DNA of 64,000 nt from NCBI GenBank assembly GCA_030647195.1, contig JAUSKD010000010.1, forward strand, positions 197-64,196. Reading direction: 5' to 3'. Shown here in pieces: positions 15,496-44,766 of this stretch (within the stretch, counting starts at the first letter, position 1; each line of letters starts with the position of its first letter). The notes beneath the pieces were generated by a model. It made no database searches. It was given only the letters and a program-made list of their open reading frames with translations, and was not told the origin of the DNA. Origin of the DNA: Candidatus Peribacter sp. GTDB taxonomy: Bacteria; Patescibacteriota; Gracilibacteria; Peribacterales; Peribacteraceae. A program made the position numbers and the translations under genes.

Positions 15496-15542
15496 GACCG
15501 CGGAAGTGTAGGGAACGCTTCTCGTGAGATCAAGGAGATTCC

Positions 15543-16550: not shown

Positions 16551-17012
16551 ACGAGGACGACAGTGTGAATGATAGCTGGCTGCCATACCACTTGCCTGCC
16601 CGTCCGACTTGTCCGGCGAAGCCCGAAGGGCGAAGTCGGAAGCTCGAAGCGAAGAGCGAAGGCGGGGCGACCCCCCAACGAATGGAACGGAAAACAGGCA
16701 GAAGATACCCTTCAACTGCATTTTGTCCAAATCAGTCAATATACTTGTAATTCCCAATGCATTCTTCTTTCCCCTCTTTTTCCCGTCACCGATCTTCCGT
16801 CGGAGCCATTGAGCAGTTCAGCCCAGTATATTCTGTTAAATACAGAATTTGACAAGTGTGTTAAATATTATTAACGGGACGTGAAATTTTGCCTAATCAA
16901 AAACAAGATCTCGATTGTTGACTACAGAGAGTTTCATTGACATTAAGAACCATTAACGTAGGATTCCATCCTTTATGGCAATTGTCCATCCTCCATCTTC
17001 CCCCATGCCGCT

Positions 17013-20000: not shown

Positions 20001-23000
20001 ATTGATAACGATCAAGACGGTGCAACGGATTTCCCGAATGATTTCTCGTGCACGACTGCGACCGACAATGACGAAACCAATCCCAAGGCCCAGTGTCAGG
20101 ATGGCGTCGACAATGACGGCGATGGCCGCGTGGATTATCCGAATGATCTGGGATGTTCCAGCAGACAGGATAATACGGAGGCGGGTGAAGCCCAGTGTCA
20201 GGACGGCATCGACAACGACGGAGACGGCGCCGCCGACTACCCGAACGATTTTTCCTGCACCACTCCCACGGATACGGACGAGACCAATCCCAAGGCGCAG
20301 TGCCAGGACGGGATTGATAACGATGGAGATGGTCTGACGGACTATCCCAATGATCCGGGATGTTCCAGCCGTCAGGATAACGACGAACACAACATCTGCC
20401 CGGTGGCAACGCAGACAAGCACCTGCCGTTGTGCAACGAACGCAGACTGTACGAACCCGGATACCTGCCAGAGCGGCATCTGCCGTCCGGTGACGTACCA
20501 GTGCAACGACGGCATCGACAATGATGGAGATGGCGCCACGGACTACCCGGCGGACTTCTCGTGCTCCGGACCCACGGACAATGATGAAACGAATCCCAAG
20601 GCCCAGTGTCAGGACGGGATCGATAACGACGGAGACGGACGTGTGGATTATCAGAATGATCCGGGATGTTCCAGCAGACAGGACAACAATGAAGGAGACG
20701 AACCGCAGTGCCAGAACGGCATTGATGATGATCAGGACGGAGCCACGGACTACCCGGCGGACTTCTCGTGCTCCGGACCCACGGACAATGATGAAACGAA
20801 TCCCAGAGCGCAGTGCCAGGATGGAATCGACAACGACGGGGACAGTCTTGTGGACTATCCCGCAGATCCCGGCTGCTCCACTCGTCAGGATAACGACGAG
20901 CACAACATCTGCCCGGTGGCAACGCAGACGAGCACTTGCCACTGTTCCACGAATGCGGACTGCACCGTCCCCGATACCTGCCAGAGCGGCATCTGCCGCC
21001 CCCAGGGAGCCGATCTCTCCGTCTCAAAGACCGGACCCACCACGGTGGTCGCAGGCACGATCGTATCGTACACAGTGACAGCGACGAACGCCGGTCCGGC
21101 CACAGCCACGAACGTCGTGATCGCCGATGTCATTCCCTCGGGCCTGACCTTCAACGCCGGTCAGTCGACCGCAGGATGCGTGCTCAATGGAAATGGAACG
21201 AGTGTGCTGTGCAATAACTTCAGTCTGACAGCGGGCCAGAGCCGCACCTTCACGATTGTCTTCAATGTTCCTTCAACGCAAGCGTGCGGAGGGAACGCGG
21301 TGATCCAGAACGTGGCGACAGTCTCCAGTTCTTCACAGGATCCGAATACGGCGAACAATACGAGCCAGACGGTGACAACGGGGGTGTCGTGTCCGACACC
21401 GCAAGCCGATCTCTCGATTCAAAAATCAGGACCTTCCTCCGTGCTCCGCGGTGACGCTGTGACCTACACCATCACTGCAACGAACGCAGGCCCGAGTACC
21501 GCAACGAACGTCGTGGTGACCGATGTGATCCCGTCCGGTCTCACCTTTAACGCCGCCGGCTCTTCCGCGAGCTGCATCCTGAATGGCGCCGGAACGAGCG
21601 TGCTCTGCAACAACTTCAACCTGAACGCGGGCGAGAGCCGCACCTTCTCTCTCGTGTTCACCGCTTCCTCCTCGATGAGCTGCGGAGCAACCATCCGCAA
21701 TACCGCAGATGTCTCGAGTTCCTCGGTGGATCCCGTCAGTGCCAATAACCATAGTAATGAGGTGAGTACGTCCGTGACGTGCCCGCAGGCGGACGTGATG
21801 ATCGTGAAGAGCGGACCGCAGAGTGTCAATCGCGGCGGGAATATCCTCTACACGGTCACCGTCACGAACTTAGGTCCCCAGCGCTCCGATAACGTCGTCG
21901 TGGTGGACCGGCCGGAATCTATGGCAGGACTCACCTTTAGCGCGTCTCAGAGCGATACGGACTGTGTCCTGAACGGCACCGAAGTGCTCTGCAACAACAT
22001 CTCGCTGCAGGCCGGTCAATCCCGGACGTACAACATCGTCTTCACGGTTTCCCCCACCTTTACCTGCGGCAGTACGGTTGCCAATCGGGCGAATGCCAAT
22101 GTCTCGACCCCCGATCCTCACGGCGATAACAACTGGAGCGATCGCATTGTGACGACCATCAACTGTACGCAGTGCAATGACGGCATCGACAACGACCAGG
22201 ACGGCGCCACGGACTACCCGGCGGACTATAGCTGCAGTGATGCCAATGATAACGACGAAACGCTTCCCCGGGCCCAGTGCCAGGATGGCGTGGACAATGA
22301 CGGCGACCAGCTCGTCGACTACCCGAATGACCCGGGCTGCTCGAACAATCAGGACAATGACGAATCCAACATCGTTCTGAATCCGGATGCGTCCATTCAG
22401 AAATCAGGACCGACGACGGTCATCCGCGGCAACACAGTGAGCTACACGCTCACGGCAACCAACGTCGGCTCCGCGACGGCGCAGAACGTCGTGGTCTCCG
22501 ATAGCATTCCCTCCGGACTCACCTTCCAGGCAGGCGCCTCCTCACCCGAGTGCGTGCTGAATGGCGGCGGCACGAGCGTACTCTGCAATAACTTCTCGCT
22601 CGCTGTCGGCCAGACCAGAACCTTTACGGTGACCTTCACGGTGACCACGGCTGTTGCCTGCGGTGCCACCATTCAGAATACGGCGACGGTCTCGACCAGT
22701 AACGATGTCAATACTGCGAACAACTCGAGCCAGTGGAATACGGCCGTGCAGTGCGTTACGCCCCAGTGCTCCGATGGCATCGACAATGACGGCGATGGTG
22801 CGACGGATTATCCCAATGACTACAGCTGTGCCTCCCCCACGGATGATGATGAGTCCAATCCCCGGGCCCAGTGCCAGGACGGCATCGACAATGATCAGGA
22901 TGGCGCCATCGATTACCCCGCCGACATCGGCTGCACGTCCGCGCAGGACAATGACGAATCCAATCCCGCCACGCCCGATCTGTCGATCACCAAGACCGGT

Positions 23001-26000
23001 CCCCAAACCGTGAATCGCGGCGATACGGTGAGCTACACCGTGACCGTGACGAACATCGGAACGGCTACGGCCCTCAACGTCGTTGTGGCGGACGTGATTC
23101 CGGCAGGACTCACCTTCCACGGAGGCCTTTCCTCGACCGACTGTCTGCTCAACGGAGCCGGCACGAGCGTGCTCTGCAATAACTTCTCGCTCGCTGCAGG
23201 TCAGACGAAGACCTTCACCATTACCTTCAATGTCCCCACCACCACGGTCACCTGCGGTTCGACGATTCGCAATACCGCGACCGTCTCGACCAGTAACGAC
23301 CAGAACGGTTCCAATAATACGAGCCAGACGGTGAGCACCTCGGTGCAGTGTCCGGTGCAGAGCGCCGACCTTGGCATTAGTAAAACGTCCAATGTGTCTT
23401 CCGTGCTGTCCGGTGATCCGGTCACGTACACGCTGAACGTCACGAACAGCGGACCGCAATCCGCTGCAAACGTTGTCATCAGTGACTCCCTGCCTGCCGG
23501 AGTGTCCTTCGATGTCCTCTTCCTGCAGACAAACGGTTTCTCCTGCTATCGCCAGTCGAGCGACGCGAATCATCTGGTCTGCGTGCGACCTGCGATGGCA
23601 GTCGGCGAAACGGTGACCATCCGCTATCAGGTGCGCGTCCTCAATCAGGGAACCTGCACGCCACGCTCGCTCACCAATACGGCCGGCGTGACGGCTCTCT
23701 CGGGTACGGATCCGAACGCGGGCAATAACTACGCCCAGGCCACGGTGCAAATGACCTGTCCGAACCTTCAGTCAGACCTCTCGATTCAGAAATCAGTCAG
23801 TCCGTCCTCCGTCCTCCCGGGCCAGCCCCTGACGTACACGCTCTTCGTGCAGAACTTCGGGCCGGGCACCGCGCAGAATGTCATCGTGTCCGATTCGTTG
23901 CCTTCAGGACTTCCCATTACCGTCCAATTCCTGCAGTCCGACGGCTTCAGCTGCTGGAGACAGAATAGTGATCCGAATCACCTGGTCTGCACGCGTTCAT
24001 CCATGCCTGCAGGTGCAACCGCCACGATCCGCTTCACGGCGACCGTGAGCGGCAATAGCTGTACCCCACAAACCGTTCTCAATACGGCTGCCGTGAACGC
24101 ACTGAACAGCACAGATCCGAACGCAGGGAACAACGCCACACAAGTTACGGCCCAGCTGACGTGCCAGAACCCGGTCTTCACGATCTCGAAGACGGACAAT
24201 CGCGACACGACACACCCGGGCGATATCCTTACCTACAGCATTACGGTGACGAATACCTCTGACGTGAACGGCACGAACGTGACCGTGACCGACCTGCTCC
24301 CCGGCTCTGTGACCTTCCTCACCGCATCGGATTTCGGTTGGTCCTCCGGCGGCAGTGTCACCTGGCAGAATCTCTCGATCCCCGCGCATACGACGAAGAC
24401 GCTGACGGTGACCGTGCAGGTGCAGTACGGCACAGCGAACGGAACCGTGCTCACGAACAATGCGACAGTGGCGGGAATCACCGCGCAGGACCAGACAACG
24501 GTTCAGAGCGTCACCACCGCTGATCTCTCGATCATGAAGACCGGTCCGCAGCTTGCCCAGCGCGGTTCCACCATCTTCTACACCATCACGGTATTCAACG
24601 CCGGCCCCGGCTCTTCGCAGAATGCGACGGTGACCGACGTAGTACCGGGCGGCCTCGTCTTCCTGCCACAGCAGTCCACACCCCAGTGCGCGCTGAACGG
24701 CGGAACAGTGACCTGCAGCGGTATTTCACTCGCAGCCGGTCAGAGCCAGAGCCTGACGCTCGCCTTCGAAATCCCCTCCTCTGTCACCTGCGGCACGTTC
24801 CTGCTCAACGCGGCCGAAGTGCACGGCATCAATGATCCGAACTGCGTGAACGACCTGAGCCAGACCGTGACCACAGCGGTGCAATGCCTCAGCCCGACTT
24901 TCACGATGAGCAAGACGGACGGCCACACGACCGCGCAACCCGGCGACACGCTGACGTACACGGTCTCGGTGACGAACACCTCTACGGTGAACGCAACGAA
25001 CATCACGGTGACGGATACCCTGCCCTCCCTCGTCACGTTCCAGAGCGCCTCTGACGGCGGAACGCAGGCGGCAGGCGTGCTGACATGGTCCGGCCTCAGT
25101 ATTGCAGCCGGTGCGACCAAGCAGCTCACGGTGCAGGTGCAGGTGAGTCAGGCGGCCACAAACGGGGCGATCATCACGAACTATGCAAGTGTCGCGGGTG
25201 TCCTTGCGCAGGATTCCACGACCGTACAGGTGCCCCAGACCAATGCGGATGTCTCTGTGATGAAGACCGGCCCGCAGACGGCCCAGCAGGGCAGCATTGC
25301 GCTCTTCGCGGTCACCGTCTTCAATGCGGGACCGTCCGCAGCGACGAACGTCGTCATCGGTGACGTGATCCCGTCGGGATTCACCTTCAATCAGGCGCAG
25401 ACCTCGTCGGGATGCGTGCTGAACGGTGCCGGAACATCGGTGCTGTGCAACAACTTCTCGCTGACCAACGGACAGAGCCGCAGCTTCACGATTGCATTCA
25501 ATGTGACGCAGAACGCCACCTGCAACGGTGTCGTGCAGAATACGGCCACCGTTTCGACCAGCAATGACACGAATCCGGCAAACAATGTCAGCCAGCCGGT
25601 TTCCACCACGGTGCAATGCCCCTCCCCCACCTTCACGATCACGAAGACCGACAACCAGACGACCGTGCAGCCGGGCGGTGTGCTCACCTACGTGGTTTCG
25701 GTGACCAACACCTCGCAGATCGCCGCAACGAACGTCACAGTGACGGATACGCTCCCCTCCCTCGTCACGTTCCAGAGCGCCTCTGACGGCGGAACGCAGG
25801 CGGCGGGCGTGGTGACGTGGTCCGGCCTCAGTATTGCAGCCGGTGCGACCAAGACGCTGACGGTGCAGGTGCAGGTCAGCTCTGCGGCCAGCAACGGAAC
25901 GGTCCTCACCAATAACGCAGCCGTGTCGGGCGTGCTGACATCGGATACGACGACCGTGCAGACCCAGACTCCCACTTTCACTATCAGCAAGACTGATAAT

Positions 26001-28016
26001 CAGACCGTCGTGCTACCCGGTGCGACCCTGTCGTATACCATTTCCGTAACGAACACCTCTGCGGTGAACGCGACGAACGTGACGGTGACGGATGCACTGC
26101 CCGGACTCGTCACATTCCTGAGTGCCTCTGATGGGGGTACACAGGCGAGTGGCGTGGTGACGTGGAATGGCCTCAGCATTGCAGCCGGTGCGACGAAGGT
26201 ACTGACCGTCCAGGCGCAGGTGAGCTCATCTGCCACGAATGGCACTGTCCTGACCAACACGGCAACCGTTGCCGGTGTCTCGGCTCAGGATACGACCACC
26301 GTGCAAACGGGCGCGACCGGAGCGGATCTCTCTATCACCAAAACAGGGCCGAGTACCGTCCAGCAGGGCGGCGTGGTGCTGTACAACGTGACGGTCAGTA
26401 ACGCGGGACCGTCCGCAGCGACGAACGTCGTCATAGCGGATGTGCTACCCTCTGGCCTCACCTTCAATCAGGCTCAGACCTCCTCGGGATGCGTGCTGAA
26501 CGGCGGCGGCACATCGGTGCTGTGTAATAATTTCTCGCTTGCAGCCGGCCAAAATCGCAGCTTCACGATCGCGTTCACCGTGACGCAGACCGCAGCGTGC
26601 AACGCCTCGATCCAGAATACGGCAACGGTCTCGACCAGCAACGATCAAAACGGCCTCAACAACACCAGCCAAACCGTGAACACGACTGTGCTGTGCCCTG
26701 AAGCCACGTACACGATCAGCAAGACCGACAACCGCACGACGGTGCTGCCGGGTGAATCATTGACCTACCAGATCACTCTCACGAACACGTCGTCCTTTAC
26801 AGCGACGAACATCCAGGTCACGGACGCGCTGCCTTCGGGCGTCACGTACGTCACGTCTTCTGACGGGGGTACATTGAACGGCGCCACCGTACGCTGGACG
26901 CTCGGTAGTCTCGCCGCAGGCGCGAGCAGGACGCTCATCGTGATTGTCACCGTGCCCTCTACGGCTTCGAATGGAACCGTGCTGACGAATATCGCATTGG
27001 TCGGTGCAGCCACCGCTCAGGATGTGACCACGGTGAATACCGGCAGTTCGAGTTCCAGTTCCAGCACCAGCAGTTCCAGCAGTAGCAGCTCGAGCGAATG
27101 CAACCTGACGGTGACGCTGCGAGATTCCCAGGATCCCGTCGACTCGGATGAGTCCTTCACCTACACCATCGAAGTCCGCAACAACAACTCTACGACGGTG
27201 AATAACGTCGCACTCACGCAGACCCTGGATAGCAACGTCGACTTCCTCTCGACGACGGGAGGCGGCAACGATGACGCCGGCAACACGATCCGCTGGACCG
27301 GCCTCTCTATCGGCGGCAACTCCACCTCGACATTCACGACATCCGTGCGCGTGCGCGGCGACCGGGACGGCGCGACGATTCGCTCTAACGCCTTCGCCTG
27401 CAGTGCGCAGGATAGCGAGAACACCCAGGTGAGCGGCAACGATATTCCCCCTCCGCCTCCCCCTCCGCCCAACGGAGCCACGCTCACTGTTGATAAGCAG
27501 GCGGATCGCACGGAAGCCCAGGCCGGCAGCATCATCGCCTACACCATATCCGTGCGAAACCAGAGTAACGTCGCCGTGGGTCCCGTCACGATAGAAGACA
27601 CCTTCTCCGCAAGCGACATGACCGTGGAGTACGCCGATGGCGGCTCCGTAAACGGAGGCTCGATCCGGTGGGATCTGGGAACGCTGGGCGCCAACGCCAC
27701 GCGCCTGATCCACTACCGTGTGCGCCTGAGCCAGAGTCTGCAGCATGGCCAGACCGTCAGCAATACCGTGCAGGTGCTGGGCGGCAACGCCACCGATACC
27801 GCACAGGTGCAGATCATCCGCTACTTCCCCCAGACGGGTCTGCTCACCCGCTTCACACAGCTGGGAACAGATAAAGCGGCCTTCCTGCAACCGGTGAGCC
27901 CGAAGAAACGTAATGCGACGGATGCCAGCATCCCTGCCCTCACATGGATGATCCTCCTCTCGACCGGTCTCACGGGCGGTGGACTGCTCGGCAGAAAATT
28001 CCTCATTGGCTTCTAA
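17013..28016 (+). CDS. giant (3,667 aa) modular surface protein: acidic Cys-bounded Ca/metal-binding-like repeats plus DUF11-type repeats
   Basis: Single uninterrupted 11,004-nt ORF with signal-like N-terminus MAKIENAKKPFAIFVLSLLLLSQPGVSALWA. By my count it has 24 copies of C-x-[DN]-G-x-D-[ND]-D-x-D-G-x-x-D-[YF]-P-x-D-x-x-C (thrombospondin type-3 / MopE-like). It has 4 copies of ICPxxTxTSxCxCxTNADCTxPxTCQSGxCRP and 17 DUF11-like repeats (TxTNxGP..NVVVxDxIPxGLTF). It also has poly-Ser and P8 linkers, then FPQTG followed by a C-terminal TM and GRK. Confidence 0.9.
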   Translation: MAKIENAKKPFAIFVLSLLLLSQPGVSALWAQTAVIAQETGAASSEAESSSAASNPQTPSVSDMRAMTSAMASTTAGGGNFTWQILCGEPGTNRSIACDDACRPCISDTYFFWRKFDLQKIGFYYTDGSGHRQLLPPFSTGGNICRDGVSAINGGGTVPTGITPQGLYTEWNAYGHVYTLYSDTHAAIVCPRGGDRTDYYWDDQGNPGTHNDGHVIINYTPAPSSQCSDGIDNDGDGAADFPNDYSCSTTTDNDETNPRSQCQDGVDNDGNGYTDYPSDAGCSSQQDNTESGGQQQYQCNDGIDNDGDGAADYPNDFSCSSATDNDETNPRSQCQDGVDNDGDGVTDGLDPGCSGNQDNDERNICPVGTSTSTCRCATNADCTAPNTCQSGYCRPVSSQCSDGIDNDGDGATDYPADFSCSSATDTDETNPRAQCQDGSDNDHDGLSDYPNDPGCNSAQDNDETNVGTPSCTQPVSASVSFNSFNAPWNYGTSCAQPPVAVATNLHAGDVVRLTGTTGGVCGREYPRAGSCVSDTSGSIFGDCDDEGTQMYSCTDNTYSKAGFYDASHNLIAEHNISAFNASVTVPAGATALYVYFKEYNQTYYYDNNGGFRCNLNFSITGNCPAQCNDGLDNDGDGAADYPNDFSCSSATDTDETNPKAQCQDGIDNDGDGRIDANDLGCTDFQDNDEFNASSSSSSSSSVPGTAQCNDGIDNDGDGKIDALVELSPSNGQSRVWYADMVGIRTFYNQIAAQRGLQQISTDWNGQGMVSNDATTADKICELAGFNNVVSRNCFEYGTTGRCNFTSCSNNTMGVWGGSNMNIVNACGYTWLASLTCRDRLAACSDGIDNDGDGRIDMADTGCATVNDNSEIMHDPDCTGPTDNTESSITQCNDGIDNDGDGAADYPNDFSCTSPTDTDETNPKSQCQDGIDNDGDGLSDYPSDPGCSSRQDNDERNICPAATQTSNCRCATNADCTNPDTCQSGICRPVSYQCNDGIDNDQDGATDFPNDFSCTTATDNDETNPKAQCQDGVDNDGDGRVDYPNDLGCSSRQDNTEAGEAQCQDGIDNDGDGAADYPNDFSCTTPTDTDETNPKAQCQDGIDNDGDGLTDYPNDPGCSSRQDNDEHNICPVATQTSTCRCATNADCTNPDTCQSGICRPVTYQCNDGIDNDGDGATDYPADFSCSGPTDNDETNPKAQCQDGIDNDGDGRVDYQNDPGCSSRQDNNEGDEPQCQNGIDDDQDGATDYPADFSCSGPTDNDETNPRAQCQDGIDNDGDSLVDYPADPGCSTRQDNDEHNICPVATQTSTCHCSTNADCTVPDTCQSGICRPQGADLSVSKTGPTTVVAGTIVSYTVTATNAGPATATNVVIADVIPSGLTFNAGQSTAGCVLNGNGTSVLCNNFSLTAGQSRTFTIVFNVPSTQACGGNAVIQNVATVSSSSQDPNTANNTSQTVTTGVSCPTPQADLSIQKSGPSSVLRGDAVTYTITATNAGPSTATNVVVTDVIPSGLTFNAAGSSASCILNGAGTSVLCNNFNLNAGESRTFSLVFTASSSMSCGATIRNTADVSSSSVDPVSANNHSNEVSTSVTCPQADVMIVKSGPQSVNRGGNILYTVTVTNLGPQRSDNVVVVDRPESMAGLTFSASQSDTDCVLNGTEVLCNNISLQAGQSRTYNIVFTVSPTFTCGSTVANRANANVSTPDPHGDNNWSDRIVTTINCTQCNDGIDNDQDGATDYPADYSCSDANDNDETLPRAQCQDGVDNDGDQLVDYPNDPGCSNNQDNDESNIVLNPDASIQKSGPTTVIRGNTVSYTLTATNVGSATAQNVVVSDSIPSGLTFQAGASSPECVLNGGGTSVLCNNFSLAVGQTRTFTVTFTVTTAVACGATIQNTATVSTSNDVNTANNSSQWNTAVQCVTPQCSDGIDNDGDGATDYPNDYSCASPTDDDESNPRAQCQDGIDNDQDGAIDYPADIGCTSAQDNDESNPATPDLSITKTGPQTVNRGDTVSYTVTVTNIGTATALNVVVADVIPAGLTFHGGLSSTDCLLNGAGTSVLCNNFSLAAGQTKTFTITFNVPTTTVTCGSTIRNTATVSTSNDQNGSNNTSQTVSTSVQCPVQSADLGISKTSNVSSVLSGDPVTYTLNVTNSGPQSAANVVISDSLPAGVSFDVLFLQTNGFSCYRQSSDANHLVCVRPAMAVGETVTIRYQVRVLNQGTCTPRSLTNTAGVTALSGTDPNAGNNYAQATVQMTCPNLQSDLSIQKSVSPSSVLPGQPLTYTLFVQNFGPGTAQNVIVSDSLPSGLPITVQFLQSDGFSCWRQNSDPNHLVCTRSSMPAGATATIRFTATVSGNSCTPQTVLNTAAVNALNSTDPNAGNNATQVTAQLTCQNPVFTISKTDNRDTTHPGDILTYSITVTNTSDVNGTNVTVTDLLPGSVTFLTASDFGWSSGGSVTWQNLSIPAHTTKTLTVTVQVQYGTANGTVLTNNATVAGITAQDQTTVQSVTTADLSIMKTGPQLAQRGSTIFYTITVFNAGPGSSQNATVTDVVPGGLVFLPQQSTPQCALNGGTVTCSGISLAAGQSQSLTLAFEIPSSVTCGTFLLNAAEVHGINDPNCVNDLSQTVTTAVQCLSPTFTMSKTDGHTTAQPGDTLTYTVSVTNTSTVNATNITVTDTLPSLVTFQSASDGGTQAAGVLTWSGLSIAAGATKQLTVQVQVSQAATNGAIITNYASVAGVLAQDSTTVQVPQTNADVSVMKTGPQTAQQGSIALFAVTVFNAGPSAATNVVIGDVIPSGFTFNQAQTSSGCVLNGAGTSVLCNNFSLTNGQSRSFTIAFNVTQNATCNGVVQNTATVSTSNDTNPANNVSQPVSTTVQCPSPTFTITKTDNQTTVQPGGVLTYVVSVTNTSQIAATNVTVTDTLPSLVTFQSASDGGTQAAGVVTWSGLSIAAGATKTLTVQVQVSSAASNGTVLTNNAAVSGVLTSDTTTVQTQTPTFTISKTDNQTVVLPGATLSYTISVTNTSAVNATNVTVTDALPGLVTFLSASDGGTQASGVVTWNGLSIAAGATKVLTVQAQVSSSATNGTVLTNTATVAGVSAQDTTTVQTGATGADLSITKTGPSTVQQGGVVLYNVTVSNAGPSAATNVVIADVLPSGLTFNQAQTSSGCVLNGGGTSVLCNNFSLAAGQNRSFTIAFTVTQTAACNASIQNTATVSTSNDQNGLNNTSQTVNTTVLCPEATYTISKTDNRTTVLPGESLTYQITLTNTSSFTATNIQVTDALPSGVTYVTSSDGGTLNGATVRWTLGSLAAGASRTLIVIVTVPSTASNGTVLTNIALVGAATAQDVTTVNTGSSSSSSSTSSSSSSSSSECNLTVTLRDSQDPVDSDESFTYTIEVRNNNSTTVNNVALTQTLDSNVDFLSTTGGGNDDAGNTIRWTGLSIGGNSTSTFTTSVRVRGDRDGATIRSNAFACSAQDSENTQVSGNDIPPPPPPPPNGATLTVDKQADRTEAQAGSIIAYTISVRNQSNVAVGPVTIEDTFSASDMTVEYADGGSVNGGSIRWDLGTLGANATRLIHYRVRLSQSLQHGQTVSNTVQVLGGNATDTAQVQIIRYFPQTGLLTRFTQLGTDKAAFLQPVSPKKRNATDASIPALTWMILLSTGLTGGGLLGRKFLIGF

Positions 28017-28103: not shown

Positions 28104-28657
28104 TAAGAGGCGGATCCCAGCACGTGTTCTTTCACCGTGCGCGTCAAATCCTCTTTCAGTGCCCGCTCAAGTTGATCGCGCTCTGCCGCCTGCGGCACGC
28201 TCAACACCCACTGGGCCAGATCCGTGCCTGCAGGAGCGTTCCCCAGTCCGATGCGAATGCGGGGGAACATCTCACCGACATGTTCCACGACAGACTTGAG
28301 TCCGTTGTGCGTTCCGGGTCCTCCTTCGTTGCGAAAGCGGATCTCGCCGAGCTTGAGGTCGCAGTCATCGCTGAGGACAAGCAGCTGAAACGAGGGGTCG
28401 GCTTTGTAGAAATTCAGGAGCTTCGAGACGGCCTCGCCCGAGCGGTTCATAAAGGTCGTCGGTTTTGCGAGAAGAACAGGCACCTCTCCGATGGCGATCT
28501 CCGAGACAACCGAAAGCACTTTGGCCTTCTCTTTCCACTCGCCTCCTCCGAATGACGCATGGAGTGCGTCGAGCGCGCGGAACCCCGCATTGTGGCGCGT
28601 ATGCTCATAGGAGGAGCCGGGGTTTCCCAGGCCCACGATGATCAGCGTCGGTTTCAT
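28103..28657 (-). CDS. pth: peptidyl-tRNA hydrolase
   Basis: MKPTLIIVGLGNPGSSYEHTRHNAGF, then NRSG and THNGLKS. ATG c28657 lies 7 nt downstream of TACAAT. The track's longer form adds a non-homologous N-terminus. Confidence 0.9.
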   Translation of the reverse strand: MKPTLIIVGLGNPGSSYEHTRHNAGFRALDALHASFGGGEWKEKAKVLSVVSEIAIGEVPVLLAKPTTFMNRSGEAVSKLLNFYKADPSFQLLVLSDDCDLKLGEIRFRNEGGPGTHNGLKSVVEHVGEMFPRIRIGLGNAPAGTDLAQWVLSVPQAAERDQLERALKEDLTRTVKEHVLGSAS

Positions 28658-28673
28658 GCGTGCGATTGTAGCA

Positions 28674-29073: not shown

Positions 29074-29694
29074 TCAGGATTTCACGATGATCTTCTTCGC
29101 TTTCAGTTCCCCGAGCGAGAGCTCGCGGCTGACCACCCCCGAGAGCAGCTCCTGAATGCGCTTGGCGTCCTTGAGGTTCTTGCCGTGCAGGTACAGTTCC
29201 ATGTTCTGCAGGATGGCACCGGCCACCTCGCGCGGATGGGGAACATTATCGAGGGAGATCGTGCCTCCGGTGGAGACTTTCTCCACCGAAATGGTGCCGT
29301 AGCGAAAAAGTGTTCCCGAGATACCCTTGATCTCGTAACTCACGCCCTGGATATCGCTGAACAGCACTTTGGTCGCCGTCCGATGGAACCAGCCGTGCCA
29401 CTTCACATCGATGAGCGCCTGATTCGTGACAAGCCAGGCGTCGAGGAAGTAGTCGAAAAAATTGCGCACCCACCAGACCAGCGAGAGCACGCTCGCGAGT
29501 GCGACGAAGTAGAAGATGATGAGAAAGGGGGCGATGGCGAGGAACACCCACGAAACGATGAATGCGGCCGTGGGCCAGAACAGGCGCACGAGGCCCAGTC
29601 GCCAGTGCGTGTGCAGGTAGAGCCGCACTTCTTCGTCGTCCTCCAGGTGTTTCTTGAAGAACCAGCGGTTGAGGGAGTCTAGGAGCGAACGCAC
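29074..29694 (-). CDS. membrane protein with bacterial PH (YdbS/YdbT-like) domain
   Basis: GTG start. Two TM segments followed by a DAWLVTNQALIDVKW...GTISVE beta-rich domain. It is a paralogue of 53496-54071. Confidence 0.6.
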   Translation of the reverse strand: MRSLLDSLNRWFFKKHLEDDEEVRLYLHTHWRLGLVRLFWPTAAFIVSWVFLAIAPFLIIFYFVALASVLSLVWWVRNFFDYFLDAWLVTNQALIDVKWHGWFHRTATKVLFSDIQGVSYEIKGISGTLFRYGTISVEKVSTGGTISLDNVPHPREVAGAILQNMELYLHGKNLKDAKRIQELLSGVVSRELSLGELKAKKIIVKS

Positions 29695-29700
29695 GCGAGC

Positions 29701-29745
29701 AGTGTAGCAGAAACCCTACACAACATCGCCCTCATCCTCTATACT
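29701..29745. promoter_or_regulatory. back-to-back leaderless-type -10 boxes for the bPH gene (minus strand) and lepB (plus strand)
   Basis: TACACT (c29706-29701) lies 6 nt before GTG c29694. TATACT (29740-29745) lies 7 nt before ATG 29753. Confidence 0.5.
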
Positions 29746-29752
29746 GGACCAG

Positions 29753-30373
29753 ATGCAGAAGAAGCCCGTCACTCTGTGGTTCCATTTCTTCGACGTCCTG
29801 CTGAACATCGTCATCATCGTGGCGGTGGTGGCGGGCATCCGGACATTCCTCGTTTCGCCGTTTCAGGTGGAAGGCAATTCCATGATCGACACACTCGAGA
29901 ACCGTCAGTACATCATCATCAATAAACTTTCGTACTTTCTTCATGCGCCCGAGCGCGGTGACATCGTCGTCTTTCGCCCGCCGAACACGGATCACAGCAA
30001 ATTCTACGTGAAGCGCATCATCGGCCTGCCCGGTGACGAAATCATCATCCGTGATGGCGACGTCTTCGTGCAGAGCGAAGGCTCGGGCAAGGAACTCAGG
30101 CTGAACGAGACATACTTAAACGAGCGCAATACAGACCACACCTACGTCGGTGCCGCGGGAAGCGGCGAAGAGAAGCGCTATGCTGTTCCCGAAGACCACT
30201 TCTTCCTGCTCGGCGATAACCGTCTGGGCAGCCTGGATTCGCGCTCCTTCCGCAATGCCGAGAACGAACCAACGCCCTTCGTGCCGCAGAACGACATCAA
30301 GGGCCGCGTCTGGTTCGTGGCGTTACCCTTCAGCAAAGCGCATGCCATGGAGGCACCGGCGTACGGATTCTAG
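29753..30373 (+). CDS. lepB: signal peptidase I
   Basis: FQVEGNSMIDTL (catalytic Ser), GDIVVFRPP, YVKRIIGLPGD (Lys) and FLLGDNRLGSLDSR. Confidence 0.9.
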   Translation: MQKKPVTLWFHFFDVLLNIVIIVAVVAGIRTFLVSPFQVEGNSMIDTLENRQYIIINKLSYFLHAPERGDIVVFRPPNTDHSKFYVKRIIGLPGDEIIIRDGDVFVQSEGSGKELRLNETYLNERNTDHTYVGAAGSGEEKRYAVPEDHFFLLGDNRLGSLDSRSFRNAENEPTPFVPQNDIKGRVWFVALPFSKAHAMEAPAYGF

Positions 30374-30455
30374 GGAACTGGGGATAAGGGAACTAGGGAA
30401 CTCGGTTGATGAACCGATTCCGGTTTCCCTACTTCCCAAGTTCCCTATTTCCCTT
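30372..30455 (+). terminator. long imperfect hairpin built from (GGGAACTN)n units after lepB
   Basis: Left arm agggaactggggataagggaactagggaactcgg. Right arm ccggtttccctacttcccaagttccctatttccct. Confidence 0.5.
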
Positions 30456-30536
30456 CGCTAAACCACTTGCATCAGCCCAAAACCACTGTAAAATGAAGGT
30501 ATCTGCCCCTGCGGGCTTTTTTCTTCTAAGAAAGCA

Positions 30537-31293: not shown

Positions 31294-31683
31294 TCAGGAA
31301 GGATTGCCGAAATCCGTCGGGAGCAGAATGAGAACCCCGTTTACCGATTCCGGGTCGATTTGCTGCTCGGCGCCATTGGCGTCGATATAACTGATCTGGT
31401 GGAACTGCTCAGCATCTGTAGCCATAAGGACGAGCGCCCGGTTCCCGACGTCTTTGCGTGTTATTGCACGTGATTCCTCGTACACCTCACGGACGAGTCT
31501 GTATCCAAAATCTTCGCGGTCAATTTCACCTGCCTCTCTGCTCATCTGCAATTTTTGCCAGAGAGGGTGTGCTTTGCATGTCTCAAGAATTTTTGCTCGC
31601 ATCGCCGCACCAATCTCCCCCAATGCCGGCTTGGGAGCATCGGTTAGGTGCTCGGGATTTGGAGTGTTTTGCTTCTCAGGCAT
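31294..31683 (-). CDS. hypothetical protein
   Basis: The ORF has coding-like composition. I chose ATG c31683 (MPEKQNTPNPE...) because TATAAT lies 6 nt upstream. The track starts at GTG c31728. Confidence 0.5.
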   Translation of the reverse strand: MPEKQNTPNPEHLTDAPKPALGEIGAAMRAKILETCKAHPLWQKLQMSREAGEIDREDFGYRLVREVYEESRAITRKDVGNRALVLMATDAEQFHQISYIDANGAEQQIDPESVNGVLILLPTDFGNPS

Positions 31684-31772
31684 ATTGTGATTATACATTA
31701 AATTATTCATTTCATCAACTTCACCCACTCCATACTCCCTTCTCCATACTGCATACTGCGTTTCAAGTACAC

Positions 31773-32067: not shown

Positions 32068-33366
32068 CTACCGGGCCGGCTTGTGTGGCAGCAACAGAGC
32101 CAGGCCCGCCATTTGGATGACGTGTCCGATGGTGTAGCCGAGGGGGAGGCTCAGGATCCCGATCGCAGGTGCGAACCACCAGGCGATCGCAACTGCCACG
32201 ACCGCATTCAACACGTTGAAGATGGCCGGCCGGGTCGTGTCCTTCAGGGCGAAGTAGGCACGGGAGAACAGGTGGTTCAGGCTCTCGAAGGGAATAGAGA
32301 AGGCATAGAGCGTGAGGCAGAGTGTGAAGAGTGCTGTCTGCCTCTGCAGGTGCACCAGCCAGATGGCGACTGGCGTGAGGAGTACGAGCGCGATTGCGCC
32401 CGGAACGGTGAGAACAAGCAGGTACAAAATCCCCTTGCGCAGATACACGCCGTAGCGGTGCCACTCCCCTTTTGCGGCGGACTGACTCAAGAGCGAGAAA
32501 ATGGAGAGCGCCAGTGCGATGCCCGAGACGCCGATAATAACGGATTGGAAGTTACGGGTGTACGCGTTCACGGTCACCGAACCTGCCGGCATGCCCGAAG
32601 CTAGCCCATCAAAAATAAGGAGCTCCACGTAGAGCATGGCGAGCGCGATCATCCGCGGAAGCATCAGCAGCCCCAGCTCACCGATATCCGGGTGCCACAG
32701 GGTGATGCGGGGGCGGTAGCCGCGCGAGAGCAGTGCAGAAAGACGCACGAGTGTACAGAGAACGGCGCCGAGCACCGTCCCGAGCATGGGCCCCAATTGG
32801 CCGTACACGGGCGTCAGCCACACCGTGCCCGCGATCGTACCCAACGTGTAGAGAATGGGCGCAATGCCGTACACCCAGAATCGCTGCACCGTGAGCAGAT
32901 ACTGCCCGTAGGCGTTGGCGAAGACAAAGAGGAGGTTCGTGAGCAGCGCCAGACGCGCAAACTGGATGTAGAGCGCGAGATCCGCCCCCGTAAATTGCGT
33001 CAGGTGCGGTGCGAGCCAAGGCAGCAGCGCTGTGAGCACAAGGGCGATCACGCCGAAGCCGATGGAAGAGACAAAAATCACGCCGTTGAGCAGCTTTTCC
33101 ATCTCGCGCTCGTCGCGTTCAACGTGATAGCGCGCGAGCAGAGGGACCAGCGCAACCGAGAACCCCGCCATGATGAAAATCTGGAACAGGAGATCAGAGG
33201 GCCGAAACGAGGCGATGTAGACATCGACCGTGCTCAGGCCCGGGAACGTCTGAGCAAGAAGACGGTCACGCATGAGGCCGACCACCGATGCACCGAACTG
33301 GGTGACGGCCAGCACGGCCGCACCGCCGAGGATGCGATGCTGAAAACGGAGAGCGCTGAAGCGCAT
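32068..33366 (-). CDS. murJ: lipid II flippase MurJ (MviN family)
   Basis: About 14 TM segments with N-terminal GASVVGLMRDRLLAQTFG-like motif. ATG c33366 lies 6 nt after TATTCT. Confidence 0.8.
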   Translation of the reverse strand: MRFSALRFQHRILGGAAVLAVTQFGASVVGLMRDRLLAQTFPGLSTVDVYIASFRPSDLLFQIFIMAGFSVALVPLLARYHVERDEREMEKLLNGVIFVSSIGFGVIALVLTALLPWLAPHLTQFTGADLALYIQFARLALLTNLLFVFANAYGQYLLTVQRFWVYGIAPILYTLGTIAGTVWLTPVYGQLGPMLGTVLGAVLCTLVRLSALLSRGYRPRITLWHPDIGELGLLMLPRMIALAMLYVELLIFDGLASGMPAGSVTVNAYTRNFQSVIIGVSGIALALSIFSLLSQSAAKGEWHRYGVYLRKGILYLLVLTVPGAIALVLLTPVAIWLVHLQRQTALFTLCLTLYAFSIPFESLNHLFSRAYFALKDTTRPAIFNVLNAVVAVAIAWWFAPAIGILSLPLGYTIGHVIQMAGLALLLPHKPAR

Positions 33367-33422
33367 GAAGCAAGAATAGCAAGAGTGAGCGCAAAAAGCA
33401 GCCTGATTCATTCGGCAAAGGC

Positions 33423-34214
33423 CTACCGAGACACATCATCCAACACCGCCTGCATGTACTGGAGCGTATTCAGTCCCTCGACGATGCGCATCGCATTGGT
33501 TTCGCGATTCAGGAAGATGAAGGAAGGCGCAACGTAGATCTGCGAATCCGTTTCTGCTGCGGCTTTGTCATCGATCACGAGATCATAGAGCTCTTTCTGC
33601 TCGATACAGGTCTGGAGTTTTGCCGTGTCTGCACCGACCGTCGAGGCCGTCGAAAGCAGGATGTTCAACGGAAGGGGGCTTCCGGTTTGCTTCATCAAAA
33701 GGTCAAGATATGCCCAGAAGGCATCATTCCCCAGTTGCGCGGCAACGCACTCCGTCGCCATACCGGACCGGTAGTCATTCTCATTGTTCGAGGCCGGATA
33801 ATGGCGGAAAACCCAGTGGATGCGATCCTTGTTCTTCTCGAAAAACTCATGCATCTTCGGGTGAACGAGTTGTGTGTAGAGACTGGTCAGAGCGGCATAC
33901 TCCACCACGATGATCTTGGTTCCGGGGTCGCCCAGAATATGCTCGTCCGCCTCAATATCCGTCAGAAAAACGTACGGGCTGGGTTCTGCCGGCAGCGGTT
34001 TGTCGCCGGTGTACTGGGCGACATCCTCGAATTTCTCCAGCGTAGGCTGGGCCGCAGGGGCGATCAGGGGCGCGGGTGGCTGTTCCGGGGAAGCGCCATG
34101 AAACGTCGGTTGACCGCCGATGAGCCAGTTCGCAAAAAAGTACCCGCCGATGAGCACGAGCAGACAGAGCGCGACGACAAACCAGACCTTCGTACGATCC
34201 TGTGATTCCATCAT
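33423..34214 (-). CDS. DsbA-family thioredoxin-fold protein lacking the CXXC active site, membrane anchored
   Basis: N-terminal TM segment. The stretch GDPGTKIIVVEYAALTSLYTQLVHPKM...FRHYP...ATECVAAQLGNDAFWAY matches the DsbA/Thioredoxin_4 layout, but the F-x-C-P-x-C position reads A-L-T-S-L-Y. Confidence 0.7.
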   Translation of the reverse strand: MMESQDRTKVWFVVALCLLVLIGGYFFANWLIGGQPTFHGASPEQPPAPLIAPAAQPTLEKFEDVAQYTGDKPLPAEPSPYVFLTDIEADEHILGDPGTKIIVVEYAALTSLYTQLVHPKMHEFFEKNKDRIHWVFRHYPASNNENDYRSGMATECVAAQLGNDAFWAYLDLLMKQTGSPLPLNILLSTASTVGADTAKLQTCIEQKELYDLVIDDKAAAETDSQIYVAPSFIFLNRETNAMRIVEGLNTLQYMQAVLDDVSR

Positions 34215-34401
34215 GAAGCGAAGAGTACGAGAAGAAAATGTTCCCGCCTAGACTCCATGACTTGACTCGAAATATTCCTATTCACAAATAGCACTTTGAT
34301 CGAACGAGGACACAAGAAAATGAATACGCAATCGATTGACCTCAATGCAAGGAAAGTCATGTGCATCTATAAGGAGTGCACTGCTACTCTTGCGTATAAT
34401 T

Positions 34402-37400
34402 ATGCGAAAACTGCTCGGTCGCATCACCGTTTCGATCGCGCTCGTTATCGTGATGGTTCTCGTCCTGCAACAGAATGTGACGCCGAAAAAGGGGAAATAT
34501 GAGCTTGCAGCAGAGCTGATTGGAGCGAGCATCTGCCCCACGGGAACCCACGACTTTAACTGTAAGTGTGATCGGGCCAAAATCGCGTCCACAGAACAGA
34601 TTTCGGAATCAGAGGCGGGCGGCGTGAGCGTGTATTGCTGCGCGGAAAAAGAACTGGGTTTCCTCACGCGCATGAAGGATACGACCAATCCCACGGATGC
34701 CGATAACGCGTATCAGGAGCTCGTGACTTTTCTGGATGCCTACAACGGAATGAAAGACGAAGGGCCGGACCTGCTGGAAAATTGGTTGCAGAACAACTGC
34801 GATAAGGCCACCTGTGATCAGTGTGACAAATTTATCGATCTCGTTGGCGGAAGCGCCGGGAGCAATCCTTCATCGAATAATAACTCTTCGGACAACAATT
34901 CCTCGGCCAACAACTCTTCGGAGGGCGGAGGCTCTTCTCGGGGAGGCACCTCGTCGAAAGGTGGCGGCAAGTCGAGCGCCGCAGGCGGAAGTTCCAGTGC
35001 AGGGGGGAGCAGCTCGAGTGAGGCCGCATCCAGTTCCAGCGCAGAGGCGAGCTCCAGCAGCGGTCAATCCTCCTCCGGAAAGAATTCCAGCACTTCTGTC
35101 GGCAGCTCGAGCGAAGCGAACAGCTCTTCATCCGGCGACTCCAGTTCCAGCGAAGAAAGCTCCAGCAGCGAAGACTCCTCTTCCTCCGCCTCAGAAGAGA
35201 GTTCGAGCAGCGAAGAATCCTCCTCCTCTGAAGAGAGCTCCAGCAGCGAAGGTTCTTCTTCATCCGAAGGGAGCTCAGAATCCTCCTCTTCCTCCGCGAA
35301 TACGTACTACGTCATCTGCGACAAGCCGGATCCCAAGGGCTACTGCTGCAAAGCCAGTGACAAAACATCGGGGAAAAAATGCGATGCGCTGGGGAGTGCG
35401 GATACCTGCTACGACAAAGGAGCGACTCCTGCGGCTGGTGACAACAAGCCCGGCAACTGGTACCTCGCTCAGCTGAACAAAGAGGAAAAGCAGGGAGTGC
35501 AGAATAAATGTATGAAAGAGGGAGGCGGCACGGGTACCGGCGGTGCTCCCGAAGAGTGCAAGGGGACATGTGGCGACGGACGCGTCGACAAGGAGGGCGA
35601 CGCCCCTGAAGAATGTGATGAAGGAGAGGCCAACACAACCGATCCCAATACAGAAGCAGAATCCATTACCGAATCCGACAAGGCCGTCGAGAGCCGGGAC
35701 GGCACCGTGAATATCCCCAAGGGAATATCCAATGCCCGTGAATCACTGACAGGGCCGATACCCTGGAGCAAGGCCTGGGGGGATCAGTTGAAAAAAAGTA
35801 ATTGCGACGACACATGCAAATTCACCAAATGCGTCGGGGTCAATCCATCGGCCGATACTTCGGCCTGTCTTGCCATTCATACCGGTGACAACAAGGAGCC
35901 GCTCTGTCAGCCGGTCACCCATCAATTCGTGAATGGAATGGGTCCCTACCTCAAGCCGAAAGGAGGCGTGACTGACGGAATGCAGTTGACCCTCGATGAT
36001 GTCGAAACGAATTTCGGCGCGTGTTCCAATCTGCCCGGCCGCAGTACGACCGGAAAGCTGTTCGCTCTCGGCGGCGGGCAGGATGTCGGCAATCCCGCCG
36101 AGATCGACGGAGGAGTGGAGGACGATATTGAATACGCGCAGCAAATCTCCACGACGGACCTGATGGCGACTGTACTGGTTGCCGGAAAATTACTGGCACT
36201 GGATCCCGCCAATAAGTGCGATGACGGGGCGGGCAATAATGTGCCTCCGGAGGATACGGATGTGGCTGAGGGGGCAGATTGTGGAAGATACTGCTGGGTA
36301 GAGAAAGAAGGAGGAGCTCGATGCACCTTCGGAGGAGAATGTCCGAGTGGTACTTGTTACTACTTTGATGTGAATGGCAGAAAAAAACATTGTCGTGGAA
36401 GAGCGGACGGAGTGGACCTGCTCCCCGACAATAATTGTCGTGCCGATAATGGTTTTTGCGCCTCACTCGTCACCTATCACAACATGGCCACGTGCGGCTC
36501 GCGCGAAGACGCCACTGGCGGAATGATGTGGTGCATTAATCACAGCTGCAAGAAACTGGCAGTGAAGGAGCGCCGACGTTCCGACCGGCAGGACAATACT
36601 CCGGCTCCGCCTCCGGGACAGGGTGGCATGCCTCCCGGCGGCGGTGGAGGCGGAGGCGGGTATCCGAGAGGATCTTCAGGAGGCTCCACTGGAGGTGGCT
36701 CGACCGGGAGTACAGGCAGTGGCGGCAGTGGCGGCAGTGGCGGCAGCCCCGGCCCCGGAAGCAGCCGCGGGAGCAGCGTTGCCTCGAGCAGGCCCAGCAG
36801 TGCTGGTTCTAGCGGGAGTGGTGGGAGCAGCAAAGCTTCTTCCAAGTCTTCTTCCAAGAGTAGTAGTAGCAGCAAGAGCGGAAGCAATGATTCAGGTGGC
36901 GGCGTAGGGAGCAAATCTTCATCTAAATCGTCGTCCAAATCTTCTTTAAAGAGCAGCAGCTCAAGCGGCCCGAGCAGCGCAAGCACTGGAAGCGATGATG
37001 GTGGTGGAAACAGCAGAAGGAGCAGTAACGGGAGTCAGGGCTCCGGGGGCAGTGGCGGCAGTGATGGTTCAGGAGGAAGCAGTGGAAGGAGCAGCAATGC
37101 AAGTAATAGCTCTGGAGTCAGTGGCGGCAGTGCCACCAGCAGTCGCAGCAGCAGTATGCAGGACTGCTGTCGTTATTCCGCTCCGACAATCAACGGAGAG
37201 ACCGGCGAGGTGTTCTGCCGTGACGGCACCCTGCAGCCGGATGGCCGGTGCCGCAACTGCGCGGGCTGCTACAGCAGTAGTAGCAGTAGTAAGAGCAGCA
37301 GCGTTGCCGAGTGTTGTAAGTACCAAAGCCCCATTTACAATGCAGAAACGGGGGTCTGGTATTGCCAGAAGGGAGAGCTGCAGGAAGATGGCCGATGCCG

Positions 37401-42413: not shown

Positions 42414-42483
42414 AGCTGTTAGCTGTTAGCTGATAGTACGAATTTTTGTTGTTCTAAAAGCTATCAGCTCACAGCTAACAGCT
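42414..42483. terminator. bidirectional hairpin built from (AGCTNNN)n units between convergent genes
   Basis: Arms agctgttagctgttagctgatag and ctatcagctcacagctaacagct pair at 22 of 23 positions, with a 24-nt AT-rich loop. Confidence 0.65.
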
Positions 42484-42485
42484 CG

Positions 42486-44682: not shown

Positions 44683-44766
44683 GACTGACGTAGGATACAT
44701 CAAAACAAGCAGTCATGGGCTAGAGCGCTGTATTGTTTATTGCTCGCATCGCAAGCGATGCTCTTG

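Follow-up and report, generated by a model that had tools for sequence, protein, structure and literature searches.

Promoter-like hexamers abutting start codons suggest leaderless transcripts in Candidatus Peribacteria

Actinobacteria, Deinococcus-Thermus and archaea are well known to initiate translation on leaderless mRNAs. Mycobacterium tuberculosis, Streptomyces and Deinococcus deserti are examples of the genomes that GeneMarkS-2 places in its group C. In this group a Pribnow box lies 6–8 nt from the start of operon-first genes, and 25–50% or more of transcripts have been predicted or measured to be leaderless; the group is common among Actinobacteria (90%) and Deinococcus-Thermus (97%) (PMC6028130). 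Work on 49 bacteria and on E. coli promoter libraries has also reported a "start element" of the form Y(-1)R(+1)Y(+2), which sets the start site in 93% of cases if it is centred 7 bp after the -10 box and in 79% at 8 bp (PMC12641261). Here we analyse a 64,000-nt stretch of DNA (the window) from a Candidatus Peribacter genome (assembly GCA_030647195.1, contig JAUSKD010000010.1, positions 197 to 64,196), in which a large share of the start codons stand a few nucleotides behind a hexamer of the form TAnnnT. On the evidence of the sequence, it is very probable that this hexamer is a -10 box abutting the start codon, that transcription begins at or next to the start codon, and that the corresponding mRNAs are leaderless.

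The window (∼58% G+C) belongs to a groundwater bacterium of the Candidatus Peribacteria (Peregrinibacteria, candidate phyla radiation [CPR]). A protein identical to its LepB is encoded on a contig of a groundwater metagenome. We called 47 coding open reading frames (ORFs) from codon statistics and curated these to 51 genes and four tRNAs. For comparison we used two sets of loci. The first contains 54 loci (800 kb, 43–64% G+C) retrieved by a LepB scan of species-representative genomes, with LepB identities of 54–90% and with labels that are nearly all Candidatus Peribacteria, Peribacteraceae or Peregrinibacteria. The second contains independent metagenome loci around rsmH, divided into in-clade homologues (at least 48% identity) and homologues from other lineages (at most 40%).

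Distribution and conservation of the start-proximal hexamer

The 58-nt intergenic region at 29695–29755 holds the start arrangements of lepB (plus strand) and of a bPH-domain gene (minus strand) back to back. An original prediction, made from the letters of the window alone, had listed these two and 19 further genes as carrying a TAnnnT hexamer 6–9 nt upstream of the start codon. When the sequence was re-read, all 21 hexamers and start codons were present at the coordinates and on the strands given, and the spacers agreed with the claimed 6–9 nt; the TAnnnT pattern itself fits strictly in 18 of the 21, the other three being the spoU-like gene (TATAAA), the gene at 54156 (TACAAA) and the C39-like gene (CACAAT). 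Pfam bore out the gene names that had been proposed (TsaE, MgsA/RarA, IPPT, TGT, L21, Pth, bPH_2, MurJ, Thioredoxin_4, SpoU, GATase_5, AA_kinase, MraW, YkuD, ROK and TAL, with LepB corresponding to Peptidase_S26), and the profiles start at residues 1–13 of the proposed proteins (Table 1). Among the 51 curated genes, 21 (∼40%) have TAnnnT 5–10 nt before the start, including two carriers, pyk and a DUF4215 protein, that are new relative to the original list.

The frequency of the motif was compared with that in shuffled controls by scoring TAnnnT at spacers of 6–9 nt before any of the first three start codons of each called ORF and repeating the count on 2000 shuffles of the upstream sequences. 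The motif was found in 18 of 47 ORFs, compared to 6.95±2.4 in the shuffles, which reached a maximum of 16. Spacer windows displaced by at least 12 nt gave 4–9 matching ORFs. An annotation-free scan of the window, which accepted any start codon among the first three of each ORF of at least 100 aa, found 30 TAnnnT hexamers at spacers 6–10 where ∼8.8 were expected.

The hexamer also guided several choices of start codon. Those for purQ, tgt and the hypothetical gene at c31683 (c marks the minus strand) fit either the N-terminus seen by Pfam, a separate gene call or the position of an antisense gene that overlaps the alternative, while that for miaA rests on the promoter model only. For tgt, the upstream extension of the ORF (13487–14092, from GTG 13487) overlaps an antisense gene for a 145-aa hydrophobic protein (c13960–13523, ATG c13960), and 14093 is therefore the consistent start. 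The antisense gene had been hidden by ORF-length rules. In the spoU-like gene, the listed hexamer TATAAA (c47634–47629) overlaps a second one, TAAAGT (c47632–47627), which fits the pattern. The gene at 54156 (54141–54158, plus strand; TACAAA, 9 nt, TTG) did not hold up as a leaderless start, as its hexamer is missing the final T and TTG starts are without enrichment in the pooled data described below.

Position within gene arrays bears on whether a gene carries the motif. Only one of the seven genes that lie less than 35 nt behind, or overlap, a same-strand neighbour has the motif (pth), as against 20 of the 44 other genes. Several carriers stand in same-strand arrays, each with a putative promoter of its own, and follow the preceding stop codon at gaps of 16 nt (pth), 43 nt (glk), 47 nt (rplU) and 56 nt (murJ). 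Translational coupling may operate in the tightly spaced genes TPM, 1423, 29066 and nusG, whose gaps range from -4 to 8 nt. The motif belongs to the first genes of transcription units, and tightly coupled internal genes do without it.

In the first set of relatives, TAnnnT precedes coding-like starts at a frequency of 7.1% at spacer 6 and 4.2% at spacer 7, with a shoulder of 1.8% at spacers 8–9 and a background of ∼0.9%. The peak survives removal of all orthologues of window genes, with counts of 28 (spacer 6) and 11 (spacer 7) compared to a background of 5.2. Gene by gene, the arrangement is kept in 54/54 lepB, 52/54 bPH (mostly as TACACT-6-GTG), 38/42 murJ and 37/53 pth orthologues, while genes that lack the motif in the window rarely have it in relatives (secE 2/53, nusG 9/52, gene 29066 6/38). 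Between distant species the region upstream of lepB cannot be aligned except for a cTGTACAg/CTACACA box, a gap of ∼17 nt, the hexamer, 6–9 nt and the ATG.

The second set gave a comparable picture. TACACT-6-GTG or a similar arrangement precedes rsmH in 17 of 23 in-clade homologues and in 1 of 21 from other lineages. For ldt, the promoter and a 7–10-nt spacer are kept in 12 of 14 orthologues, of which 11 start with TTG; glk (5/6) and the DUF4215 gene (9/13) retain the arrangement, and six of nine pyk orthologues have TAnnnT 7–10 nt ahead of an in-frame start codon close to the aligned N-terminus. Two window genes without the motif, used as controls, scored 0/9 and 0/4. For tal, a script count gave TAnnnT in four of seven orthologues, in one of which the match belongs to a GTG lying 15 codons ahead of the aligned start; CATACT stands 7 nt before the ATG in two orthologues and much further upstream in a third. 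As judged from these alignments, the arrangement is a lineage-wide property of Candidatus Peribacteria, conserved gene by gene.

Promoter features, predicted transcription starts and alternatives

Several features indicate that the hexamer is part of a promoter. An extended -10 element (TGn) precedes 8 of the 21 window hexamers compared to 24 of the 493 other TAnnnT sites (4.9%; p = 3.6e-6), and the same contrast holds when relatives are pooled (28.5% versus 6.1%). When sequences are aligned on the hexamer, T is enriched where a -35 hexamer would begin with a 17-bp spacer, and the best match to TTGACA at 16–18 bp exceeds that of other TAnnnT sites (p = 2e-11); clear -35 boxes are seen in ldt (TTGACA-16-TATAAT), rsmH (TTGAAA-16-TACACT) and the membrane protein gene (TTTACA-17-TATAAT). 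TAnnnT also occurs 9–22 nt before the mature 5′ end of all four tRNA genes in the window, and among 33 tRNAs from the window and relatives it clusters 8–23 nt upstream. We read the TAnnnT hexamers as the -10 boxes of housekeeping sigma-70-type promoters, with a TACACT-like consensus. Upstream stop codons were considered as a source of TAnnnT and rejected, the third base of the hexamer being A in 6%, G in 14% and C or T in 81%.

Promoters of tRNA-Met in ten loci of relatives conserve the form TTGCAA, 16–17 nt, CACAAT or CAGAAT, which shows a -10 box beginning with C to be in use in the clade. Such C-initial boxes bear on the CACAAT of the C39-like gene, which is without orthologue support, and on the CATACT of the tal orthologues.

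The bases between hexamer and start codon carry a signature of their own. In the spacer-6 class (n = 85), the share of purines drops from 41% to 8% on the way to the start codon; at -1 stands C in 71% of cases and T in 21%, followed by the start codon's own A (67%) or G (31%). Where the spacer is 7 nt, 48% of the sequences have G at -1, which again places a purine at the seventh position. The earlier claim that the 6–9 nt between box and start codon leave no room for a Shine-Dalgarno (SD) site is in keeping with this purine-poor composition. At spacers 6 and 7, ATG is enriched (57 and 46 occurrences versus a background of 7.0) and so is GTG (26 and 19 versus 3.9), while TTG shows no enrichment in the pooled data (2 and 0 versus 3.9). 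We accordingly rejected TTG as a general leaderless start, ldt being a conserved exception: three bases before its TTG, most orthologues conserve c-G-c at +5 to +7 after the box, which suggests that the ldt transcript starts at the conserved G and has a 3-nt leader. As for the wording of the spacer itself, a TTCG- or TCGCTT-like sequence had been described as frequent; of the window spacers, 8 of 20 do contain TCG, as against only 6 of 146 from more distant relatives, and we rejected it as a clade-wide element, the enrichment being confined to this genome.

In the mechanism that these features suggest, RNA polymerase would start on the initial base of an ATG or GTG start codon or 1–3 nt before it. 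At a spacer of 6 nt, the most frequent one, the start codon's A or G would be the seventh base after the hexamer, and Y(-1) together with the A/G(+1) and T(+2) of the start codon would form the promoter's own start element. The resulting mRNAs, having neither a 5′ leader nor an SD, would presumably be translated by ribosomes that already carry initiator tRNA and bind straight to the 5′-terminal AUG or GUG. The leaderless organization that had been proposed is supported by spacing, promoter features, start-site signature, conservation and the lack of SD sequences, and the transcription starts and the mode of translation are predictions from these.

A number of observations weigh on the other side. 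Searches for RNA sequencing runs that contain this sequence found none. Spacers of 8–10 nt (rplU, pyrH, pyk, the membrane protein gene and the DUF4215 gene) predict leaders of 2–4 nt, so that these transcripts would not be strictly leaderless, and leadered transcripts of the same genes could arise by read-through from upstream promoters. The -35 elements are generally weak, many promoters being of the extended -10 type, and a generic scan for TTGACA-17-TATAAT over the 7 kb between 28 and 35 kb of the window returned only two sites, not above shuffles, one of which is the lepB promoter. Lenient choice of start codons yields ∼5–7 coincidental matches of motif and start, and a few of the 21 listed genes may be due to chance; rarA, miaA, spoU, the gene at 54156 and the C39-like gene are individually weak and may be false. 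Lastly, the pooled statistics of the first comparative set are dominated by a few orthologous families sampled across many species and are not fully independent, for which the rerun without orthologues of window genes and the second, independent locus set serve as remedies.

Three other explanations have to be weighed against leaderless transcription. Chance combined with a free choice of start codons gains some credit from the looseness of TAnnnT, which occurs 514 times in the whole window, and from the ∼7 of 47 ORFs that shuffled sequences still supply; it is hardly credible when the observed count exceeds the maximum of 2000 shuffles, when 800 kb of relatives display a sharp two-position peak, when TGn is in such excess, and when conservation is gene-specific and differs between in-clade and out-of-clade homologues. 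It is also very unlikely that TAnnnT is a non-SD ribosome-binding or enhancer motif within longer leaders, resembling the A/T-rich motif of GeneMarkS-2 group B (Bacteroidota), with transcription starting further upstream. A lineage without SD motifs and with an altered anti-SD could be expected to use some other start-proximal signal, and the motif does lie at the usual distance of a ribosome-binding site, but the hexamer also precedes tRNA genes, which are untranslated and before which a ribosome-binding motif would not be expected. It is moreover accompanied by TGn and by a -35 element at 17 bp; operon-internal genes do without it, whereas the group B motif precedes all genes (PMC6028130); and enrichment before ATG and GTG only, together with the pyrimidine rule at -1, suits start-site selection and not ribosome binding.

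The third explanation accepts the hexamers as real -10 boxes, but of minor or internal promoters, with the main transcripts being leadered, from upstream promoters or by read-through, or the true start codons lying further downstream. Carriers close behind a same-strand gene (pth, glk, rplU and murJ) make read-through plausible, the 8–10-nt spacers yield short leaders in any case, and additional TAnnnT boxes are found upstream of some genes. We nevertheless consider this explanation unlikely, since the hexamer and the start codon at the aligned N-terminus are conserved at a fixed spacing across species and the Pfam profiles begin within the first 13 residues. The purine-poor discriminator and its pyrimidine at -1 point to selection for a transcription start exactly on the start codon, and a leadered copy lacking an SD would have no obvious initiation signal. 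Leaderless transcription from the abutting -10 box remains the reading that we prefer.

Shine-Dalgarno sequences and initiation in the remaining genes

Genes without a start-proximal box do not appear to rely on SD pairing. GGAG, GAGG and AGGA are not enriched upstream of these genes (0.4–1.2 fold), and a compensatory SD matching an altered anti-SD, with words of the GGAAG type, was rejected (GGAA 0.67, GAAG 0.82). In a survey from 2024, Ca. Peribacter riflensis is placed among the SD-scarce species (7%), in a class without a conserved CCUCC, and the supplement of that survey reports GAACACTTCCTTA, not ...CCTCC..., at the 16S 3′ end of three Peribacteria genomes (PMC10783764). No rRNA gene was found in the window or in the fetched loci.

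Many of these genes have a different kind of upstream sequence. A G-free run of at least 14 nt stands directly before the ATG in 7 of 51 genes, compared to 1.4% of all ATGs in the window (p = 8e-6), and a comparable C-free run was found before the start in 0 of 51 genes. The leaders concerned are C/U-rich, often with CCCTCC, TCCC or CCCT words, and are listed in Table 1 with two further C/U-rich leaders. In the pooled relatives, TCCC, CCCT, CCCC and CCTC are enriched 4.5–5.6 fold at positions -20 to -3, where G falls to 10–19%. The leader of the gene at 54775 is C/U-rich in all four orthologues, with CCCTCC in three and CCTCCC in the fourth. A C/U-rich stretch before nusG was not counted, as it is the coding 3′ end of secE. 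In one relative (locus L061), whose tal protein is 97% identical, no -10 box lies near the start and a C/U-rich cttctcttttcttcctttctt precedes the ATG instead; compared with tal of the window, this shows that either start type can take the place of the other within a short evolutionary distance.

Predicted folding is weaker in start regions than in internal coding windows (-4.5 versus -7.7 kcal/mol in 40-nt windows, p = 0.005), and likewise in the first 40 nt of the genes with predicted leaderless starts (-5.3 versus -8.4 kcal/mol, p = 0.006). These computed energies are compatible with initiation through an unstructured start region.

We tentatively extend these observations to a broader proposal, which we hold to be possible but somewhat short of probable: the Peribacteria may have abandoned SD pairing altogether and may initiate in two SD-independent modes, with ∼40–50% of genes leaderless and G-free, C/U-rich leaders serving most of the others. 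The start codon may then be built into the promoter start element, the genes of same-strand arrays may have their own promoters, and the CCCUCC, UCCC and CCCU leaders may represent a leader type that is not described as an initiation signal. Such leaders might keep the start region unstructured or bind a ribosomal protein. If the proposal holds, the mutated anti-SD and the reduced ribosome of the clade would be tied to a distinct initiation regime, and the calling of start codons in CPR genomes would be affected.

Catalogue of sites and comparison with described systems

Table 1. Start-proximal hexamers, tRNA promoters and C/U-rich leaders of the window (c, minus strand; lengths between elements in nt; lower-case letters, bases directly before the hexamer).
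Feature	Interval	Strand	Arrangement	Remarks
tsaE	3382–3397	+	tgcTATAAT 3382–3387, 7, ATG 3395	
Membrane protein	5844–5884	-	TTTACA c5884–5879, 17, TATAAT c5861–5856, 9, ATG c5846	predicted 2–3 nt leader
rarA/mgsA	10966–10982	-	TACGAT c10982–10977, 8, ATG c10968	weaker case
miaA	12619–12634	-	TATCAT c12634–12629, 7, second ATG c12621	first ATG c12630 overlaps hexamer
tgt	14080–14095	+	TACAAT 14080–14085, 7, ATG 14093	TGT profile from residue 11
rplU	15493–15510	-	TACACT c15510–15505, 9, ATG c15495	L21 profile from residue 1; predicted ∼3-nt leader
pth	28655–28670	-	tgcTACAAT c28670–28665, 7, ATG c28657	Pept_tRNA_hydro profile from residue 6
bPH-domain gene	29692–29706	-	tgcTACACT c29706–29701 (extended -10 TGn), 6, GTG c29694	Pfam bPH_2
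lepB	29717–29755	+	-35-like TACACA 29717–29722, 17, TATACT 29740–29745, 7, ATG 29753	Pfam Peptidase_S26
Hypothetical gene	31681–31718	-	TTGATG c31718–31713, 17, TATAAT c31695–31690, 6, ATG c31683	independent gene call, same 129-aa product
murJ	33364–33378	-	tgcTATTCT c33378–33373, 6, ATG c33366	independent gene call, identical start
DsbA-like thioredoxin gene	34212–34227	-	TACTCT c34227–34222, 7, ATG c34214	
spoU-like methylase	47618–47634	-	TATAAAGT c47634–47627; TAAAGT (c47632–47627), 6, ATG c47620	
purQ	49836–49850	-	tgtTACAAT c49850–49845, 6, GTG c49838	GATase_5 profile from residue 5
pyrH	50113–50130	+	TATACT 50113–50118, 9, ATG 50128	Pfam profile from residue 4
pyk	55314–55331	+	tgcTACCAT 55314–55319, 9, ATG 55329	not in original prediction
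DUF4215 protein	58808–58826	-	tgaTAGAAT c58826–58821, 10, ATG c58810	not in original prediction; predicted 3–4 nt leader
rsmH	60195–60231	-	TTGAAA c60231–60226, 16, TACACT c60209–60204, 6, GTG c60197	RsmH profile from residue 5
ldt (YkuD)	60351–60389	+	TTGACA 60351–60356, 16, TATAAT 60373–60378, 8, TTG 60387	
glk (ROK)	61554–61570	+	tgcTACAGT 61554–61559, 8, ATG 61568	
tal	63122–63136	-	TATAGT c63136–63131, 6, ATG c63124	Tal profile from residue 3
C39-like gene	63457–63496	+	GTGACA 63457–63462, 18, CACAAT 63481–63486, 7, ATG 63494	tentative
tRNA-Gln -10	c16574–16569	-	TATCAT	
tRNA-Pro promoter	44683–44697	-	TATCCT c44697–44692, 9 before tRNA 5′ end	
tRNA-Arg -10	c50074–50069	-	gcTATAAT	
tRNA-Ser -10	c61051–61046	-	TATACT	
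clpP leader	12771–12800	+	G-free, C/U-rich	run of 30 nt
c13960 gene leader	c13983–13961	-	G-free, C/U-rich	run of 23 nt
lemA leader	c43964–43949	-	G-free, C/U-rich	run of 16 nt
45918 gene leader	45904–45917	+	G-free, C/U-rich	run of 14 nt
atpG leader	47694–47712	+	G-free, C/U-rich	run of 19 nt
54775 gene leader	54744–54774	+	G-free, C/U-rich	run of 31 nt
cupin leader	61110–61131	+	G-free, C/U-rich	run of 22 nt
Further leader	16990–17012	+	C/U-rich	
frr leader	50836–50865	+	C/U-rich	

Outside the catalogue, a TACACT followed after 8 nt by an ATG lies 22 nt before the ATG of a Ser_hydrolase gene at 44842 (44806–44842), out of frame with it; a frameshift, a small ORF upstream of the gene or a short leader may account for this.

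The lepB stop codon is immediately followed by two mutually inverted arrays of 8-mers, CTAGGGAA repeated 4.2 times and TTCCCTAC repeated 3.8 times. They fold as one long hairpin (-58 kcal/mol for the 166-nt stretch 30365–30530, z = -4.1), behind which comes a small GC hairpin with a T run; these elements occupy 30368–30452 and 30502–30520, and the predicted structure may act as a terminator or insulator between lepB and secE. Tandem repeats of 7–8 nt are common in intergenic regions of the genome and its relatives (1389–1415, 5210–5247, 31727–31757 and 42414–42484 in the window; also upstream of lepB, pth or murJ in five loci of relatives), often directly ahead of promoters or between the ends of convergent genes. 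Their units include CCCCAGTT, CTAACAG, the heptads ACTCCAT/GCATACT before acyP, and AGCTGTT. A 26-nt palindrome, TCATGGTTCGACAGsGCTCACCATGA, occurs twice (288–313 and 13490–13515) where none is expected by chance, once 8 nt before the ATG of a GT4 gene at 321 and once on the 3′ side of clpP.

Very large proteins take up about one-third of the window (17013–28016, 34402–40032, c9623–5946, 40064–42400, c58810–56822 and c53122–51485). They include three DUF4215-repeat proteins and one RTX-repeat protein and are probably surface or secreted proteins; the 3667-aa and 1876-aa members have no Pfam match in their first 1000 residues.

Leaderless starts would explain how translation can be initiated without SD pairing in these organisms, and they yield a practical rule for start codons in Peribacteria, namely an ATG or GTG 6–7 nt past TAnnnT with a pyrimidine at -1. 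They also predict an unusual density of promoters in the genome, with many genes transcribed singly, and would make the clade a natural system for studying a promoter start element and a start codon as one sequence.

Full-text searches of the literature for leaderless genes in CPR, Patescibacteria, Peregrinibacteria and Saccharibacteria found no description, and the paper describing Peribacter genomes makes no mention of promoters or SD. The data support an architecture of a known kind, that of group C, in a lineage for which we found no such report. As in group C, the -10 box lies at a fixed short distance (peak 6–7 nt), here in 21 of 51 genes, and ATG or GTG stands at the predicted 5′ end of the mRNA. 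Unlike group C, the -10 box is TACACT-like rather than TATAAT, the CPR is not among the phyla named for that group in PMC6028130, and the remaining genes, which use SD there, show no enrichment of SD words in Peribacteria, whose published 16S 3′ end is without CCUCC. The missing SD of the remaining genes is a departure from the typical group C genome and not from leaderless initiation itself.

Other systems resemble the Peribacteria in part. Archaea of group D, such as Haloferax and Sulfolobus, also have a high share of leaderless genes, and some archaeal lineages have lost the anti-SD core (PMC10783764), but their TATA/BRE box lies ∼26 nt upstream (PMC6028130), whereas the Peribacteria have a bacterial -10 hexamer at 6–7 nt with TGn and -35 elements. 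Bacteroidota (group B) share with the Peribacteria a very low use of SD and an altered or unused anti-SD, and Ca. Peribacter riflensis is assigned to the same class as they are, SD-scarce without a conserved CCUCC (PMC10783764); their motif, however, is found before every gene, operon-internal genes included, which excludes a promoter (PMC6028130), while that of the Peribacteria avoids internal genes and precedes tRNAs. The predicted transcription start itself matches the published start element (PMC12641261): here too a -1 pyrimidine, the start codon's A or G and a T at +2 are centred 7 bp after the -10 box, with the difference from published core promoters that in Peribacteria the element would also serve as the start codon of translation.

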